A stretch of 64,000 nucleotides of DNA, taken from the IMG/VR virus record IMGVR_UViG_2822225849_000004; one strand, 5' to 3'. Each line of letters starts with the position of its first letter. The stretch's first letter is position 1. The stretch is from a virus. This document shows positions 22,751-64,000 of this stretch, one piece after another. The translations under genes were made by a program, and so were the position numbers. Below the pieces are notes generated by a model. The model did not search any database, was not told where the DNA came from, and saw nothing but the letters and a program-made list of their open reading frames with translations.

Positions 22751-25700
22751 ATGCAGAGAGTGAGTGAGAAAATTTATTCTATTGCTTCCCCTTCTTTATG
22801 TACGAAAAAGAAGAGTCATGTTGTTTCGATTCCTTTGGGATCAACAATGAAGAAAACATATAGTCTCTCGCTTTCTGTTTTAAATCCTTTTGTAAAAAAT
22901 GCGAATAATTTTCCAGTCAGTTTGCCGCCATATTCAAGATTCAAAGCTGTTAAGGAAGAAGATGCTGGGGTATTTGCAACCAAGATAGTTAAGGGAAAAG
23001 GTATATTAACAGACCTTGTTGTAGAGGCAATAAGGCAAGTTGAGGTGACTGCTAATATTGCTAAAGTGGATATTGCAAACCTAATGCGGAGTATCAACAT
23101 GGAACTGTTAAGCATACAGGATTCTAAACCGCTTAAAGAAATTCTTGCAGATGTTCATTACTATCAGAAAGCAATGCAACATGACCGAACTTTTGATATG
23201 GAACATATGGAAGGGAACAATGGAAGCAGATTAGATACAAAGTATGCAGATGTAACAGAAATGTCTAGTACAGATCGTAAGATATATAAAGCAGGTAATA
23301 TGCTCCCAATTGAGCAAGAGAGAGTAAAACAGAAATTACGAGAATTTGCAACCAATGTAGATGAAATACCGCGATGGGTACAGGTTGCACGTATTTTATA
23401 TGGCGAAGGATTTTATGAAACAATATTGACTGAAAGAAGAGAAAAAGAAATATGTAGTACTGTAGTTAGAAATGTGGATCATGTAGAGATTAGCCAAAAA
23501 GAATTACCTGTACAAGAGATAAGTGATTTTGAGCTTTATAATAACTTGCCAAGAGAAGTAACTACTTCTTATGAGGAATTTGATTTATTTACTGATACAG
23601 GAATTCCGGTTTATATGCCAGATTATGATTTGTTTGCTCGTAAACAAAGAGAAATACAGACTCGTAATATAAATTACAATACAGCGAATAGAAATGCCAT
23701 TCAGCGGAATGGTGAAATGAATTATTTTGAATTTGTAAATAGAAAAGCACTGAAGATAGATGGCAGATTTATTAATATAGAAGATTTAGAGCGTAAAAAG
23801 TTAGAACTTCAAACTAATGAATATGATGTGTCATATGCGGACCGCATAATACAAGACATATATACATATGGTGGCCATGTATATAATAACGCTCAAAAAC
23901 TATTAATAGAATATGATTCATCTCACATAGAAATGAATGAAATGAATCATATAACGCATGAATATGAAAGTAAATTCATAAGTGAATATGAGTTATTGGA
24001 AAGACAGTACCATTCTAATGAGGTAAATTTAGTAGAAACATTGATGGTATCAAGTCAGAATCATTTGTACATGGATTATAATCTTCCAGAAATGATACAG
24101 AGTGATGTGCTCACAAAAGAAGTAGAAGTAAAATTAGCTAAAGACGAACAAGTTAATAAGAAAACGAAACATGTATGGACTGAATATATACACCATGAGG
24201 AAATGGACCTAATACATAAACAATTATTTGGGACTATTCAAGATAACTATGAATTTGCTAGTAGACAAATCAAAAAATTGACCGGATTTTATGAGGAATT
24301 TGATCTATTTAATAGTTTAGGAATCCCAGTTTATATGCCAGACTATGATTTATTTGCTCGTGTACAGAGAGAACTACAAGCGAAACAAATAACAGTTAAT
24401 TCAGCTAAAAGAGACATACGTTCAGTATATGGTAATGTTCGTGATACGGATCTAGCAGATAGAAGCATGCAAGAGAAAGAGGGAGTCTTTTTTGATGTAG
24501 CTGCTATAGATAGAAAAGTATTACAAATGGAAGTGAATGTACCTTCTTATGAATTTTCTAATCGAGTTATAGATGAGCAAGAAGCAATAGGTATATATGG
24601 ATATGAACGTTTTAATCGAGTAAATGGACAGTATAATACTGCCCAAGCGGATATATCTTCCATGGATCGGATTCTAGGTGAAGTAGAAACTCCATTTACA
24701 AATGTGTATGAATTAGCAAAGCGCGACCTTCATGAGTTGTTAGTGGAGGATGATAGAATAGCAGAGTCTGTATTGTATGATCGATTGTTTATAAGTGAAG
24801 AAAGTAATGAACCAATAACAGGTGAACGAGTTAAAGTCGATATTGAAACCGAATGGACAAACCCTGTAGAGTTTACAAAGCAAGAACAATTGATAGCACA
24901 GAATGAAGAAGGATATGACATTGTTAATAGACATGTAAAAGAACAGGACTCTCGTTACGAAGAATTTGATCTTTTTGATTTAATAGGAACTCCAGTTTAC
25001 TTACCGGAGTATGATTTGTTCGCAAGGATTCAAAGGGAATTACTAACGAATATAGAGACAGCTGAAATAGCAAATAGAGAAGATAATATAGAAGCAGAAA
25101 TTAATACGGTTGATTCGATTGGTAATCTAGTTAAAGAAGTAGCAACTAATATAATTGATAGTAATGATATAGGATATATTGAGAAAGAGTTACAAACTAG
25201 TATTGAACAATATGAAATCGCAACGAATGATAGGAATTGGTATGCAGAAAGTACTATATCTGATCCGATGACAAAGCGAGTGCCAGAAATAGATACGAAT
25301 ATAATCGCTACTGATCAACTCGAGAGAATAATAAAAGAACGTAATACAAATGTAATCAAGGATGAAGAGTTAGAACGCCTTACGAAACAACTCATAATGA
25401 AAATTAAGCATTTTGATGATATGCGACAAATTAATAATGAGTACGAGTCAAATGTTTTTGAAGCAGACGAATGGCAAAGAAAAGCAGATAATAAAGCATC
25501 AATACATGAATATGATGTAAGTGAGTCTGAAAGAGAACTAGCGAGTGAAGAAATCCGTACAACTTTAACGAATAAGTACAATACTTTTAATACTACTATT
25601 TGTGACATAGAACAATCCAGCCGAACAGTAGACAGCGAAAGTATACTTGTTGAAAGTGATACTTTTGTATTAGAAAAGGAACTAGAAGCATCGTATGAAG

Positions 25701-57330: not shown

Positions 57331-58264
57331 CATAAAGTATAGAGGATATGTTATAGCGTTAGTGTAATAGAGAACGTGTCAACAGAAGGGGGTAGAGAGG
57401 TGAGGGGATATACCTTTTAGTACACACCTATTAAATATATAACATGTAACAATGAAGCAGATGATGTGAACAAAGAGGAGGGCAAAAAGAGACATCAACA
57501 TCAAGCAACGTAGATCATCACTGAAAGGCATCGAAGGCAAAAGGTGAGAGACAATGATCTGTTATCATAGTGTGAGTATTGAACAGATAGGGAGAATCCT
57601 TGTGTTTAAAGGGGAATATGGCGTGAATTAGATGTAATTATAATAACCGAACAATGGAATTTTAGTGATGAGGTTGTTGTATATGCGATTTTAGTTAACA
57701 TACTTACACTTATAGGAAGTTATTTAATATAAATGTGATGTGTAAATATTGTTATATCAAAGTTTATATTTGGTTTTTCGGAGATTATATTATAAAAAAG
57801 TACGTTCATTTACATAAGTGAAAGATGCGAACATTAATATTTATATCGTTATCATTGTTCGTTAATTAATTTGTGATAAGTATTCCTATAAGATACGTTA
57901 TAAGGTACTTTGTAAGTGGAATTGTTAAAATGTATGTTTTACTCCATAAATTAAAAAGTTGCGTCTAGCCACCCCCTCAACACACTCTCAAAAAAATTAG
58001 ACATGTCCACAAAGAAAGGAGGTAAAATCGTTGAGTGATTTTGAGTCCACAACATCATATATTGAATCTGTTATAAATCTACCAAAGCAATCATTCTCAT
58101 TTTTGAAAAAATGTATCCTCTCACAATTCCCAATGCTAAAACTAATCAAGAATAAACATCCATTTATTACAACGTAACAATATAAAGTTTTATACCCTTA
58201 TGTTGCAGATTACTTATTAAAAGATATCAACCTTTATGATGTAACGGTTCTTCACTACGAAGAT

Positions 58265-58885
58265 ATGGATTCTAAAAATCATACTCTCAATGGTTTTATC
58301 TTAGTTAATAATACAACATGGGAACATCACAATTTTATTTTCACTTATGATTGCGATTGGTTATATAATAAACAATCTTTTGAAGTAGAACAACACATTC
58401 AAGAGCGTATAAACAAATTGGTTTATAACACTTACGAATGTTTAATATATAACAAATCTTTAGTAAAGGAGAATCTTTTTATGAGTAATATTCAAAGATT
58501 GAAAATGGAAATCGCAGGTATCGAATTACCTAATGAAGAGTTACTTATTTATTTGGAGGAAAGTAATTTGAATGGTGATATGGAATATAATTCAGCATCT
58601 AAGATACACAAAAGAGCAATCTATGAAACAGTTGTAACTCCAATGGATATTAAAGCGTTTGGTGAAACAACTAAAGATTCGGATGGTGTGGTTACTTATA
58701 CATGGGGTAAAGATATTAATGCTGAAAATTATTCTGGTTTTGTTGGTTATACTCTTTACTTGTATCAGAATGGTACTTATTCTCATTTGATAAATTTTAA
58801 TAAAGATACAACGTCTTATAAATGGATTAACAGAAGTAAAGGTAATTATTCTGGTCAGATTGTAGTTAGGTTTGTTGATGGTTAG
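58265..58885 (+). pseudogene. Chimeric remnant of phage structural genes (head-tail adaptor-like part plus beta-rich part)
   Basis: Internal MSNIQRLKMEI...YLEESNL adaptor-like segment; the upstream frame is broken by a stop. Confidence 0.4.
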
Positions 58886-58966
58886 ACCACAATGCTGGGC
58901 TCTATAAAGTATTTTGAAAATGCTATTGTGCAAGACAAATTTATAGAAAACCCTTGGTAATTTGGA

Positions 58967-58995
58967 TTGACAATACAGAGAAAATATGACAATTT
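58967..58995 (+). promoter_or_regulatory. Sigma-A promoter for the ncRNA-SLATT-RT cassette
   Basis: Perfect TTGACA (58967-72), 17-bp spacer, extended -10 TGnCAATTT; predicted start site ~59001-59002, the first base of the RNA stem. Confidence 0.55.
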
Positions 58996-59001
58996 AATAT
59001 A

Positions 59002-59121
59002 AGGTAAGGAAAAGTTTTCTATTCGACTTTGTACTTATATACAAGGTATTACTAATCAATTACATAAAATGATTCCATTAGGAATATTAATCGTAACCAT
59101 TTGTAAACTCTTTCCTTACCT
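59002..59121 (+). ncRNA. Predicted RT-associated structured ncRNA
   Basis: Closing stem aggtaaggaaaagttt (59002-17) with aaactctttccttacct (59105-21, one bulge); internal hairpins 59027-46 and 59072-85. Confidence 0.75.
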
Positions 59122-59151
59122 AATTAATACTAAATAGTCATAGGAGTTAAA

Positions 59152-59799
59152 ATGATAAAATATAAGAGAGTAACGTATAAGAGGGTACCTAGTAAAAAAA
59201 GTAAAATAATCCTAACAGATGTTGAGGAAGACATCATTAAACTCAGAGATAATAAAATCTATGTAACAAAGAAATCAAGAATGATAGCAGAAGCAAGAAT
59301 GAATGATAACCATGTTTTCTCTCAATTCTTAGTTAACTATTATACTTTTGTTGTTTTAGCACTTTCTATTGCGATATTAATTATTGAAGATAAGGATAAA
59401 ACGATTTCTTTATTAACAGTTATTGCTTCAGTTGGCTTATTTGGAGTTTCTTTGTTTCTTTCAAATATGAGTTATAAAGAAAGGGCTTTAAAGTATAAAG
59501 AATCGTATCTGAGTTTAGGTGAGTTAGAATCTAAACTAAGTCTTTTGCTAAGGAAGAATAATTTAAATTCTACTCAAATGATTGATGTGTTTGAGAAATA
59601 TCAGCAAGAATATCATAATATATTATCAAAAACAGATAATCATGACGAAATAGATTATATAAAAGTCAAGATTGATCAAAGTCCCAATCAGGATTTTATC
59701 ATTAAATATTATAAATATTTAATAACAAAGAATTTTTATCGCTTTTTATTTGTAATTTTCCCCATTTTACTCTATATTTTACCGAAACTAGGTGTTTAA
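59152..59799 (+). CDS. SLATT-family (SLATT_5-like) transmembrane effector
   Basis: YVTKKSRMIAEAR-TM-TM-YKERA..Y..L..L...TDNHDEIDY pattern plus a C-terminal TM. Confidence 0.8.
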   Translation: MIKYKRVTYKRVPSKKSKIILTDVEEDIIKLRDNKIYVTKKSRMIAEARMNDNHVFSQFLVNYYTFVVLALSIAILIIEDKDKTISLLTVIASVGLFGVSLFLSNMSYKERALKYKESYLSLGELESKLSLLLRKNNLNSTQMIDVFEKYQQEYHNILSKTDNHDEIDYIKVKIDQSPNQDFIIKYYKYLITKNFYRFLFVIFPILLYILPKLGV

Positions 59800-61168
59800 G
59801 ATGACAGAAAGTGTTCGTTTAGAGGATTTTTTTTCAATAAACTCTTTACATGATACCTTAAAAAAATATATAAAGTTTAATACTGCTATTGGGATTGATA
59901 AAATGACATATCAATCCTTTTTAAATCAAAATGATGAACAAATACGAATAATTAATAAGGGAGTTTTAAATGGCACATATAAATTTACTCCTTATAGAGA
60001 ACATCTAATTATTAAAAGTAGGGATTCTGCACCACGATTAATTTCAATACCAACTATTCGGGATAAGTTAGTATTAAAATCTTTGCACATTGTATTAAAA
60101 GATATTTTTAAAAATATAGAGCAAAAGTTGCCGCAAGCACACATACAAGAAATGAAAAATACATTAAAAGATTATGATTATTTTATAAAATTAGATATCT
60201 CTAATTTTTTTGGGGGTATTAAGCATGGAATTCTTTTTAATGAACTTGCCAAAAAAATAGAGGATGATGTTGTAATAAATTTAATTAAGAAATCTATTAC
60301 AACGTTAACCGTATCAGATGATAATAAAAGAGATGACATAATCACACAAGGTGTTCCACAGGGATTGCCCATTTCGAATATATTGGCTAACATATATATT
60401 AGTGGTTTAGATGAAAAATTGCGTGAAGAAGCCCATATAAAATATATACGTTATGTTGATGATATTTTAATTCTATGCAAAAAAAACGATTTTTCTAAAG
60501 TGTATAGAGAAATTAAGTATGAGATAGAAGGGATTTATAATTTAAATTTAAATGAAAAAAAATATAAACATGGATTAATTAAGGATGGATTTGATTTTTT
60601 AGGTTACAGAATTGAACAAATAAAAGAGAACAGAGTAGGTTTAACTGTCAGAGAAGATAATAAAAGACGGCATGAAGATTCTATAGTTAAGATTTTCACT
60701 AATTACAAATTTAATAAGGACAAGATAAAACCAGAGCAATTCATATTTAAATTAAATAATAAAATAACAGGTTCAATTAGTGAGAAAGTCGAAGGTAATT
60801 CCACAAGAGAATTTAAGTACGGATGGTTATTTTATTATTCTCAAATGGATGATACTGGTTTTCTATACCATTTAGATTGGCTTGTAAAAAAATTATTAAA
60901 GGAATTTCAATTTAACCATATTAATCCTCAAGATATAAAAAGTTATTTTACAACATATTATGAGATAAAATATAATATCAAAAATACTAAGTATATACAT
61001 CGCCCCGATGAGTTAACACACAAAGAACAAAAAGAATTATTAATAAAGGTATTTAATATACATTCATCAAAGTTAAGGGATTCTCAAGAAATTGAAAGAT
61101 TATATTATAAATTTGTTTATAAACCTATTAGGGATTATGAAAAAGATATACAAAAACTGTTGTCTTAA
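59792..61168 (+). CDS. Defence-associated reverse transcriptase (DRT10/UG17-like); likely start ATG 59801
   Basis: AIGID, PRLISIPTIRDKL, KLDISNFF, GVPQGLPISNILANIY, YIRYVDD, FDFLGY; C-terminal YGWLFYYSQMDD; no maturase/HNH or Cas1 domain. Confidence 0.9.
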   Translation: MFKMTESVRLEDFFSINSLHDTLKKYIKFNTAIGIDKMTYQSFLNQNDEQIRIINKGVLNGTYKFTPYREHLIIKSRDSAPRLISIPTIRDKLVLKSLHIVLKDIFKNIEQKLPQAHIQEMKNTLKDYDYFIKLDISNFFGGIKHGILFNELAKKIEDDVVINLIKKSITTLTVSDDNKRDDIITQGVPQGLPISNILANIYISGLDEKLREEAHIKYIRYVDDILILCKKNDFSKVYREIKYEIEGIYNLNLNEKKYKHGLIKDGFDFLGYRIEQIKENRVGLTVREDNKRRHEDSIVKIFTNYKFNKDKIKPEQFIFKLNNKITGSISEKVEGNSTREFKYGWLFYYSQMDDTGFLYHLDWLVKKLLKEFQFNHINPQDIKSYFTTYYEIKYNIKNTKYIHRPDELTHKEQKELLIKVFNIHSSKLRDSQEIERLYYKFVYKPIRDYEKDIQKLLS

Positions 61169-61175
61169 TCACAGT

Positions 61176-61210
61176 AAGAAAGTGTCCAATTACAGGACAC
61201 TTTTTCTTTT
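61176..61210. terminator. Bidirectional terminator between RT and convergent integrase
   Basis: aagaaagtgtcc / ggacactttttctt inverted repeat with T-run. Confidence 0.75.
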
Positions 61211-62228
61211 ACAAATTATTAATTATACTGTGTTTATTATGCTGAATAATAATATCCTTACTTGTCATATTGACACACTTTTTCACCATCTCAATTGATG
61301 AATGACCTAGAATTTTTTGTAACGTCATAATATCACCATTGTTGAGTAAGTAATATTTTGCAAATGTATGTCTAAGGTATGAGGTGACACTCTGACACCT
61401 TTGATTCTTGCACCCTCACCCATATACTTTTAATCGCTGTCTAAATCGTGCAGGGTCAACAGTGTTGCCATAAACAGTTACAAATATATAGGTTGTTTCA
61501 AATTCCTCTATTTCAACAAATAGTTCTCTTAATAGTTTACTTGTCTTTTGAGTAAATGGTACATAACAGGTTTTGCGTTTTTTTGTGTTAGTACCTTTTA
61601 ACTCAATTACATTCGTTTTGAAATCAATGTCCTCTTGTTGAAGATTTAATGCTTCACTAATTCGCATACCTGTATCAGTAAGCAACATCATTAATACATA
61701 ATCTCTAAAACTTGCATATGTTCGTTGGTCTGGTTGTTTAAGTAAGGTTTTCAACTAGTCAATGGACAATGCTTCTATATTATCTTGCGTTCCTTTTAAT
61801 TATTTGATTTTTGTAAATGGATTTGTTTGTACATATTCTTCTTTAACGAGGAAGTTGTAGAATGCTTTCATATGTTTCATGATAGTATTTATATAAGAAA
61901 CTGAAACACCAACGGGTTTATATTTTTCCTTAACGCAATAATTATTTTTATGTTTAACATGGTCATTCTTCAAGTGATGTAAAAATTTTTTAATAGTATT
62001 TGTATCGAGTGAGTTAGTGGTTACGTCTTCATGATGCTCTTCTAAGTATCGCTGAAACACTAGAAAGTAACCGTTCTTATTCTCAAGTGTTCATGTTGCA
62101 AGCCCTTCTGCATCTTTTGCGAACATATTGATGTTAAATAACTCTTGAAATGTATAAGTTTCAATCTTTGTAACTTCAATGCTTGTACGCCCTAACTTTG
62201 CTTTACCTCTTTTACCTGTTCTAGACAA
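61209..62228 (-). pseudogene. Tyrosine integrase, multiply disrupted
   Basis: Fragments KDAEGLA, LLTDTGMRISEAL, then out-of-frame VSPHT.RHTFAK...LQKILGHSSIEMV; in-frame stop near 61755 and several frameshifts. Confidence 0.85.
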
Positions 62229-62572: not shown

Positions 62573-64000
62573 ATGGGGGTAATTTCCAAAATGAAGCTTC
62601 AAATCGTGACCCAAAAAGCTACTGAATTTGAACCCGATATTTCATTGCTTTCTGAAAAAGAATCAGGACGCCAAGAATTCGTAAAACGTTTCCCGTTAGA
62701 ATCCTTAAGAAATCTAACCGTAGAAGAATATGCCAATACTAAAACAAAAAATTGTTTCAATTACTGGCTCGAGCGAAAAAATATATTAGGCGGCATTGGT
62801 GGAGCCAATTCTGCTAAATTCGGTATTTATCTTGCTAAAATTGGTGAGTACTGTAAAAGTTACGGTAAACAAAAAGTGGTATTAAAAGATGAACAGTTAC
62901 AAGAAGAATTTAGAGCTCTAAAAGAGGGTATTTGTGAAGCGATTCAACTTGCAAAGGAAGGCCGCATTTCTGAAATTGTTACATTAAATTTACCAATTTA
63001 TAATATGGTACTGCTAAAAATTTTAAATATTTATGTTCCAGAGAAGTTTTTTAATATTTATTCACCACCAATATTGATTGAGCTTGGGAAGGAATTACAT
63101 ATAAAAGATGAATTGCTTACTCCTCAGAATGCAATTGAGTTGAATCATGCAGTGTTGCATGCTATTAAGAAAGACGATGTTTTTTAGGTTGGTCTAATGA
63201 AAAAATTTCAAGATTTATTTGGGATACATTTTCCGAACGAGATAAATCGCTTGATAAGAGTTTAAACTATTGGTTAGCTGGCCATACATATGGAAAAGAT
63301 CGTTCCATTCAAGATTTTTTATTGAAAAACAATTGCATAGCGATAGGCTTTTTACATGAGGATTTATCATCTTTTCTAGAAGAAGAAAATATTGAAGATA
63401 TCATAGATGAGAAAGAAGAAACACCAGCAGGACAAAAAGCATTAAAGCAATTTTTAAAAATGAAAGAAGGAGAGCTTGTTGCTTTAAAAACATCTTTTAC
63501 TCGTAAGGTTGATGGGAAGACAAGATCAGTGTTACGAGTTAGTGCTGTTGGAAAAATTACTAAAGATACTATTGATGGTTATGAATTCTCTGAAGAGTAC
63601 GGACATCTACTTCCTGTTGAGTGGATTAATACTGAAGAGAGAGAGTTCATAGGTTACGGAGGATATCGTAGTACATTAAATGAAGTGAAAAATAAGAATG
63701 TAATTAACTTAGTATTTATGCAGGGAAAGGAAATTAGCAATACGCCCCAAGAATCTAGTGAAGTATTAGATACAGATCCAAGAAACTATGTATTTTTTGG
63801 TCTACCTGGAACGGGGAAAACATATCAAATTGTTGAACGTGCTCTTGAATTAATTGATAAAAGAACATATGAGGAACTAAAATCAAATGGACGAGAGGCA
63901 TTGCAACAAGAATTTTCACGTTTAACTAAAGAAGGGAACATTCATCTCGTGACATTCCATCAGTCCTATGGCTATGAAGATTTTATAGAAGGATTGAAAT
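62573..64000 (+). pseudogene. mcrB: McrB-like AAA+ GTPase of a type IV restriction system, frameshifted at T6 63180-63185; runs off the window
   Basis: First frame stops at TAG 63185-87. The frame from 63187 is open to the window end and contains FFGLPGTGKT and VTFHQSYGYEDFIEGL. Confidence 0.8.

Follow-up and report, generated by a model that had tools for sequence, protein, structure and literature searches.

A reduced DRT10 noncoding RNA in a virus-borne Bacillota-type locus and its probable template loop

Introduction

Which part of a defence-system RNA is copied into DNA over and over again, and can this be read from the RNA itself? DRT10 defence systems consist of a UG17 reverse transcriptase (RT), a SLATT protein and an upstream noncoding RNA (ncRNA). 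The question arises here for positions 59002..59121 (+) of a 64,000-nucleotide stretch of DNA, hereafter the window, from the virus record IMGVR_UViG_2822225849_000004, which comprises 65,023 bases in all. A first-pass annotation of this stretch had noticed two copies of ATTAC between two hairpins and proposed them to be a telomerase-like template that yields an 11-nt tandem-repeat cDNA.

Repeat addition of this kind, relying on an A-B-A′ pattern in the ncRNA, was published for DRT10 in 2025-26 (Tang, Sanchez-Nieto, Ramirez, Chen), so the telomerase-like idea is a known rather than a new one. Tang et al. found that the RT, primed on its C-terminal serine, makes kilobase-long tandem-repeat single-stranded DNA: once A-B has been copied up to a hairpin boundary, the cDNA shifts back to realign on A′, and the cycle starts again (PMC12632851). 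Mutating either A or A′ abolished the repeats and mutating both in step restored them, meaning that the mutation and rescue tests suggested in the first-pass annotation are those already performed by these authors (PMC12632851). Sanchez-Nieto et al. found that two ACU triplets program a 7-nt repeat, and they propose that SLATT is activated through the accumulation of cDNA (10.64898/2026.04.29.721553).

Structurally, two RT monomers sit on one pseudo-symmetric RNA (Ramirez et al., 10.64898/2026.06.29.735271; Chen et al.), and both of them are active (10.64898/2026.06.29.735271). The 19-nt Loop B of Eco3 is the processive template, while its 12-nt Loop A, because it does not contain an A-B-A′ pattern, gives only an abortive product of ~10 nt (10.64898/2026.06.29.735271; Chen et al.). 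The 5′ template boundary is geometric, being set by the base of the hairpin and a linker of 2 nt that stays uncopied (10.64898/2026.06.29.735271). Either loop turns processive once it is given A-B-A′, i.e. the RNA sequence alone decides (Ramirez et al., 10.64898/2026.06.29.735271).

The mechanism inferred in the first-pass annotation is thus right for the UG17/DRT10 family on the strength of published experiments (PMC12632851; 10.64898/2026.04.29.721553; 10.64898/2026.06.29.735271), although it had been published before. Its suggestion that the DNA itself, and no neo-gene product, would be the signal for SLATT likewise agrees with the current published model. What the locus leaves to be decided is the loop, and here the choice of the middle one was probably mistaken.

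A complete DRT10 system in a virus record

The virus record carries a complete DRT10 system of the Bacillota subtype, arranged in the order ncRNA, SLATT, RT, with the two genes tightly coupled. The ncRNA segment lies within a 266-nt gap that has an unannotated ORF on one side and the SLATT-RT pair on the other. The first gene of this pair (59152..59799, +; ribosome-binding site AGGAG at 59142-46) encodes a SLATT_5 two-transmembrane effector (Pfam PF18160, 2e-25; PADLOC RTasSLATT, 1e-46) and ends with a stop codon at 59797-99. For the RT gene (59792..61168, +), both an ATG at 59801 and a GTG at 59792 are candidate starts; the true start is probably the ATG, which abuts the SLATT stop and corresponds to the gene call of the 95%-identical homologue L097.

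Family membership of the RT can be read directly from the profile searches. The PADLOC RT_UG17 model matches at 1e-139, covering 4-455 of 458 aa, compared to 1e-44 for the next-best PADLOC model and to far weaker matches of the DRT9 and DRT2 models (5e-15 and 5e-17); RVT_1 (2e-27) is the sole Pfam match. The active site is intact, with an invariant YVDD motif and invariant R220, Y221, D223 and D224 among 39 homologues. Like 36 of these homologues, which have it at the identical alignment position, the protein ends in a serine (the remaining three comprise one with a terminal tyrosine and two with short C-terminal extensions), and this residue is predicted to act as the primer by analogy with the published serine primer. 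The closest RT, at 95% identity, comes from Bacillus mycoides, and the other close homologues, at <=60% identity, are from Bacillota as well. Since the close homologues are all from Bacillota, the sequence places the RT in subtype ‘UG17-C’ of Sanchez-Nieto et al.

Several neighbouring features deserve mention. Immediately 5′ of the cassette, a 206-aa ORF (58265-58885, +) has no Pfam or PADLOC match. Beside the cassette lies the split remnant of a tyrosine recombinase (61416..62060, -), whose catalytic core and SAM-like N-domain fall into separate ORFs; in the core ORF, Phage_integrase is matched over positions 9-115 of its 172-position profile. The cassette upstream is intact. A recombinase also adjoins two of the three E. 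coli systems of Tang et al. (PMC12632851). Further along, an ORF at 63322-63999 (+) that runs off the window end contains the P-loop GLPGTGKTY; the 226 aa present in the window match no Pfam family significantly, and the ORF may be another defence-island gene. A blastn search of the cassette against a phage collection and a search of genome contigs with the window's single RT as query each returned no match. Among the collected loci, SLATT lies downstream of the RT in L010, L017, L025, L029, L032, L033, L039, L065, L073 and L079, which include Paenibacillus and other Bacillota. This arrangement is the one assigned to UG17-B.

A reduced ncRNA with two hairpins and two loops

To define the RNA, we took the loci of the closest RT homologues (L097-L108, L145, L146, L001, L002) and aligned the DNA that precedes SLATT in each. 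The putative promoter at 58967..58995 (+) consists of a -35 element TTGACA (58967-72), a TRTG ‘-16’ motif (58985-88) and a weak -10 element CAATTT (58990-95). All 12 of 12 aligned upstream regions agree in TTGACA, in T-TG and in the A at position 2 of the -10 element. A consensus promoter scan did not list this conserved promoter, because its -10 element is too weak. Transcription is predicted to start near 59002, just where the stem that closes the RNA begins on its 5′ side.

The ncRNA, of ~120 nt and UG17-C type, is closed by pairing of its own 5′ and 3′ ends (P1) and contains, from 5′ to 3′, a 5′ loop, SL-a, Loop A, SL-b, Loop B and the 3′ strand of P1. Its fold has a z-score of -4.3, with none of 200 shuffles being as stable. 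In the consensus fold of 12 relatives, 14 of the 21 pairs have compensatory changes, the pair counts in the alignment exceed those of all 500 of 500 shuffles, and P1, SL-a and SL-b all covary. A covariance model of this RNA (R1) places it upstream of SLATT in 14 loci with E-values of 1e-15 to 1e-30; a weak match elsewhere in the window (24212-24340, E=0.33) was taken as chance.

Within this fold, a conserved single-stranded segment, CTATTCG (59018..59025, +), forms part of the near-invariant TTTCTATTCGAC, its columns being invariant or nearly so. SL-a (59026..59047, +), the 5′ anchor hairpin of Loop A, has 8 bp, with 88.8% of alignment cells paired and six pairs changed on both sides. SL-b (59072..59085, +; ATTCC/GGAAT), directly 5′ of Loop B, is paired in 96.9% of cells and is, by analogy, the counterpart of the published template-boundary stem SL5. 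The 23-nt middle loop, Loop A (59048..59070, +), includes the invariant CTAAT at 59052-56 and is free of G. The last loop, Loop B (59086..59104, +), measures 19 nt if a weak extension of P1, paired in 69% of the alignment, forms.

Because the flanking helices covary, the first-pass description of the ATTAC segment as single-stranded and lying between two hairpins is correct. The repeat is there, too: ATTAC at 59048-59052 and at 59059-59063, with the spacer TAATCA (59053-58) in between and hence a period of 11, without possible extension on either side (T/A before, T/A after). Reverse-complementing ATTACTAATCA gives the predicted cDNA unit, which is the unit GTAATTGATTA of the first-pass annotation in circularly permuted form. 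By computation, an 11-nt concatemer of this kind has stop codons in all three frames of both strands, as had been claimed, which holds for that product. The accompanying caveat that a 5-nt repeat may arise by chance was justified, as the first 5 loop nt recur within 18 nt in ~10% of loop shuffles and in ~9% of equally AT-rich 23-mers from the window, so the repeat alone is within chance expectation.

Both single-stranded loops, of 23 and 19 nt, are preceded by a hairpin with like flanks (G59025-[SL-a]-A59048 and G59071-[SL-b]-A59086), and similar motifs recur in relatives. Such motifs occur in the 5′ strand (CTATTCGAC), in Loop A (CTAATCAAT) and in Loop B of relatives (CTATTCAAC), corresponding to 59018-59026, 59052-59060 and 59089-59098 of the window, and are also found in L102 and its relatives. 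Together with the shared G-[stem]-A flanks, they fit the published pseudo-symmetry of DRT10 RNAs and hint at an internal duplication.

Some candidates and searches led elsewhere. A 4-bp pairing of TTAC (59060-63) with GTAA (59093-96), suggested by the single-sequence fold, was rejected as it is missing from the relatives' consensus fold. A pattern of the ncRNA core gave 0 matches in viral contigs and 35 loci in metagenome contigs, the latter judged to be chance, as none had the SL-b motif and most had no evident hairpin. No relevant family was found by an Rfam scan of 58000-62000. Scanning 105 genomes from a single Bacillus family with the covariance model returned no match and is uninformative, because only 32 of ~5000 candidates per genome were scored. 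Among public sequencing runs, no RNA run was listed as containing this DNA; the sole DNA source is a Logan contig, probably the source assembly itself, in which neither junctions nor free ends occur at the template, a result that speaks neither for nor against expression or cDNA.

Which loop is which

The family to which this RNA belongs offers a guide to its loops. A CUAAU loop lies between SL3 and SL4 both in UG17-C RNAs with five hairpins and in those of UG17-A, and the published template loop comes later. Folding individual RNAs puts CUAAU in the earlier loop in L008, L009, L013, L021 and L081 (UG17-C, five hairpins) as well as in L066 and L083 (UG17-A). Similarly, Table S2 of Tang et al. 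has a conserved CAACUAAU loop between SL3 and SL4 that is not the template, and the template loop predicted there is the last one before the closing stem (PMC12632851).

In the window, the CTAAT of the middle loop is invariant in 13 of 13 aligned relatives, and positions 1-13 of this loop match the CUAAU loop of L008 at 11 of 13 positions in a by-eye alignment. The last loop has an 11-mer, TAATCGTAACC, in common with the last loop of L009. On these sequence grounds, the middle loop is the homologue of Loop A and 59086-59104 that of Loop B. The ATTAC repeat therefore sits in the Loop A homologue, since CUAAU occupies the earlier, non-template loop of related RNAs. In the DRT10 literature surveyed, UG17-C has no sequenced cDNA and no experimentally defined template, which is why the loop assignment rests on homology.

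Direct repeats across relatives

The distribution of direct repeats can be compared among eight lineages with differing loop sequences, namely the window, L098, L145, L102, L002, L001, L003 and L005. In the last loop, a direct repeat of >=3 nt begins at loop position 3-4 in eight of eight lineages, with sequences and periods that differ: TAA/6, ACA/4, ATCTA/4, AACT/8, AAACT/9, TGA/5, TCCA/4 and CCATC/9. In shuffles the count has P=0.0008, and the summed length is reached in 0/5000, values that are uncorrected for 18 anchor scans and refer to an anchor chosen post hoc. In the AACT group, A and A′ are kept and B varies (ATTC, ACGG, ATCT). The last loop of L002 has the exact layout of Eco3, with A at position 3, A′ at position 12, a period of 9 and a length of 19 nt. 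The Eco3 template itself, CAATGATTCCAAT, was sought in the collected loci and found in none.

The middle loop gives a different picture. A direct repeat at the anchor used in the first-pass annotation is present in just four of the eight lineages (P=0.28, shuffles). This annotation had counted the lack of a repeat in homologues against its own proposal, and the result is divided: four lineages retain an anchored repeat and four do not. Relatives carry a different repeat at this anchor, (T)AAGC...(T)AAGC with a period of 13. In relatives of this AAGC type, A is unchanged while A′ decays, reading AAGT in L145 and AAAC in L108 and being lost from L107 and L098, so A/A′ identity is not maintained in the middle loop.

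In a sister clade (L003, L004, L005, L014), the CUAAU loop is followed by an additional hairpin, GGTAC...GTACC, and the last loop has the strong 5-nt repeat CCATC-CAAA-CCATC. The second ATTAC of the window appears, on comparison with L003, to be the end of the conserved CTAATCAAT joined to the remnant of such a lost hairpin. The window RNA has A-B-A′ direct repeats in both of its loops: the 11-nt arrangement in Loop A and, in Loop B, TAA (59088-90), TCG (59091-93) and TAA (59094-96), with GTAA at 59093-96 and 59103-06 as an alternative.

Weighing the candidate templates

We infer, with somewhat better than even confidence, that Loop B of this DRT10 ncRNA (UG17, Bacillota UG17-C) is the processive template; like this choice of loop, every product sequence given here is a prediction. 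As in its Eco1 and Eco3 homologues, two RT molecules would bind one pseudo-symmetric ncRNA, and each, using the serine at its own C-terminus as primer, would copy the loop presented to it. Copying would halt a fixed few nt short of the upstream hairpin; where the copied end matches a short repeat downstream, the DNA would slip back and the unit be added anew. The outcome would be a long single-stranded tandem-repeat DNA, which is thought to license the SLATT membrane effector. From Loop B (59086-59104), TAA-TCG-TAA would give a 6-nt unit and the product (CGATTA)n, and the ATTAC...ATTAC of the middle loop would lie in the equivalent of the Loop A that Eco3 copies just abortively. Loop B is favoured because of homology and geometry: it is the final loop before the closing stem, as in Table S2 of Tang et al., and its 19 nt compare with those of Eco3 Loop B. 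Within the window, the lengths of the repeats speak against it, the Loop B repeat having 3 nt (2 nt under strict geometry) and that of Loop A being a perfect 5 nt.

This imbalance is what keeps the middle loop in contention, either alone or alongside Loop B. Copying would then start at about C59063 and proceed toward SL-a, with the cDNA realigning on the second ATTAC to produce the 11-nt unit TGATTAGTAAT (identical to GTAATTGATTA). We regard this as unlikely, though worth keeping in view, because an engineered A-B-A′ works in Loop A. The two RT monomers are both active, and a Loop A provided with A-B-A′ makes tandem repeats (10.64898/2026.06.29.735271). The A/A′ pair starts straight after a covarying hairpin and leaves a 7-nt 3′ flank before SL-b, the relatives' (T)AAGC repeat occupies the identical anchor, and lengths of 5 nt for A and 6 nt for B are within Tang's detection ranges (PMC12632851). 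The loop is also large enough for a template, as Loop A measures 21-24 nt in this clade versus 12 nt in Eco3. Yet the published geometry of a stem plus a 2-nt linker counts against an 11-nt product: with the linker uncopied, the RT would reach just TAC or AC of the A copy, which would lengthen B to 8-9 nt, close to where repeat addition drops. The patchy distribution of the anchored repeat among the lineages and its chance frequency for this loop alone weigh in the same direction, as do the decay of A′ next to an unchanged A and the seemingly composite origin of A′ described above. In addition, this loop, with its invariant CUAAU, is conserved in sequence, unlike the published template loops (PMC12632851). 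Of the first-pass template prediction, the class of mechanism has therefore stood, and the segment chosen, being the Loop A homologue, is probably not the processive loop.

The middle-loop repeat might also be a mere by-product of RNA structure, with a mini-helix around CUAAU, formed by ATT/AAT in the window and AAG/CTT in relatives, and the palindromes AATT and CTTAAG giving the appearance of direct repeats. On either side of CTAAT, most of the 13 aligned RNAs have AAG...CTT or ATT...AAT, as does the L003 group; these flanks are kept even in L098 and L107, both of which have no direct repeat, and have a parallel in the CAA...TTG around CUAAU in UG17-A RNAs. Such a helix would comprise just 3 bp, most of them A-U, and the consensus fold does not contain it; it is missing in L001, L002 and L008, and the pattern was read off alignments by eye, leaving this account with a slim chance. 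About equally doubtful is a Loop B template that realigns via GTAA (59093-96) and GTAA (59103-06) across the spacer CCATTT to make the 10-nt product (AAATGGTTAC)n. With 4 nt and a period of 10, it exceeds in length every other direct repeat of the RNA's 3′ part, and the ~6 nt remaining up to the closing stem proper resemble the 3′ flanks described by Chen et al. It would begin, however, at loop position 8 as opposed to 3-4 in all relatives and Eco3, its second copy overlaps the P1 extension, in which A59105-06 pair, and the close relative L145 has TAACCATTTG, too, but not the second GTAA. The 10-nt GTAA unit is hence less likely than the 6-nt TAA unit. A concatemer of AAATGGTTAC would contain an ATG and no stop in any frame of the cDNA strand, with stops in all frames of the complement, a superficial likeness to the never-ending ORF of DRT2 that is probably a coincidence.

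Finally, both loops might possess a working A-B-A′, making this a natural dual-template system in which the two RT monomers would produce an 11-nt and a 6- or 10-nt repeat DNA. This state has so far been reached only by engineering (Ramirez et al. 2026, 10.64898/2026.06.29.735271), and we consider its natural occurrence here improbable. Processive copying of Loop B alone is our preferred reading.

Significance

With a telomerase-like template already established for DRT10, little is gained from restating the idea for this locus. Its value lies elsewhere, as the reduced two-hairpin RNA constitutes a compact test case for UG17-C, the branch whose template awaits experimental definition in the DRT10 literature surveyed. 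Since the Loop A repeat is better than that of Loop B here, the window RNA lends itself to a natural test of whether RNA sequence alone sets the processive monomer. More generally, the position of the Loop B repeat in relatives, 3-4 past the hairpin, could serve to predict the products of Firmicutes DRT10 systems.

Comparison with known systems

The closest characterised relatives, Eco3DRT10 and Eco1DRT10, have the ncRNA-SLATT-RT order, the RT family, the C-terminal serine, the 5′/3′ closing stem and two single-stranded loops, each downstream of a hairpin, in common with the window. The 19-nt last loop is another trait of Eco3DRT10, as is a direct repeat that, in relatives of the window RNA, begins 2-3 nt past the hairpin. 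The window RT, however, is only ~32-36% identical to those of the enterobacterial loci in our set, and its ncRNA has two internal hairpins instead of four to five, with SL2 replaced by a conserved single strand. Its Loop A differs from that of Eco3 in having 23 rather than 12 nt and a 5-nt direct repeat of its own. For those Bacillota loci checked, Table S1 of Tang et al. has the flag FALSE, which we read as no ncRNA match, i.e. their covariance models apparently missed the ncRNAs of these loci (PMC12632851).

UG17-C itself, represented by Exiguobacterium sp. AT1b, is described by Sanchez-Nieto et al. as Bacillota-restricted, with SLATT-RT order and a subtype-specific ncRNA 5′ of SLATT (10.64898/2026.04.29.721553), all of which agrees with the window. 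The AT1b RT is among the homologues of the window RT (P0088, 40% identity), and the window differs from this representative in belonging to a sub-branch with a reduced RNA. The system characterised by these authors is of the UG17-A type, with a 7-nt AGTAATA repeat, and the part of their work available to us defines no UG17-C template (10.64898/2026.04.29.721553).

Among other Class 2 UG RTs, DRT9 (UG28) and DRT2 (UG2) likewise copy an upstream ncRNA repetitively, but DRT9 makes poly-dA and the DRT2 concatemer encodes the Neo protein, in contrast to what would be expected for the window. The likeness to telomerase, finally, comprises an internal RNA template, a structured 5′ boundary, an alignment segment that equals the template start and repeat addition by realignment. 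It is a resemblance in mechanism, as argued in PMC12632851: the DRT10 RT is not TERT, is protein-primed, works without a chromosome end, acts as a dimer on one RNA and serves in defence.
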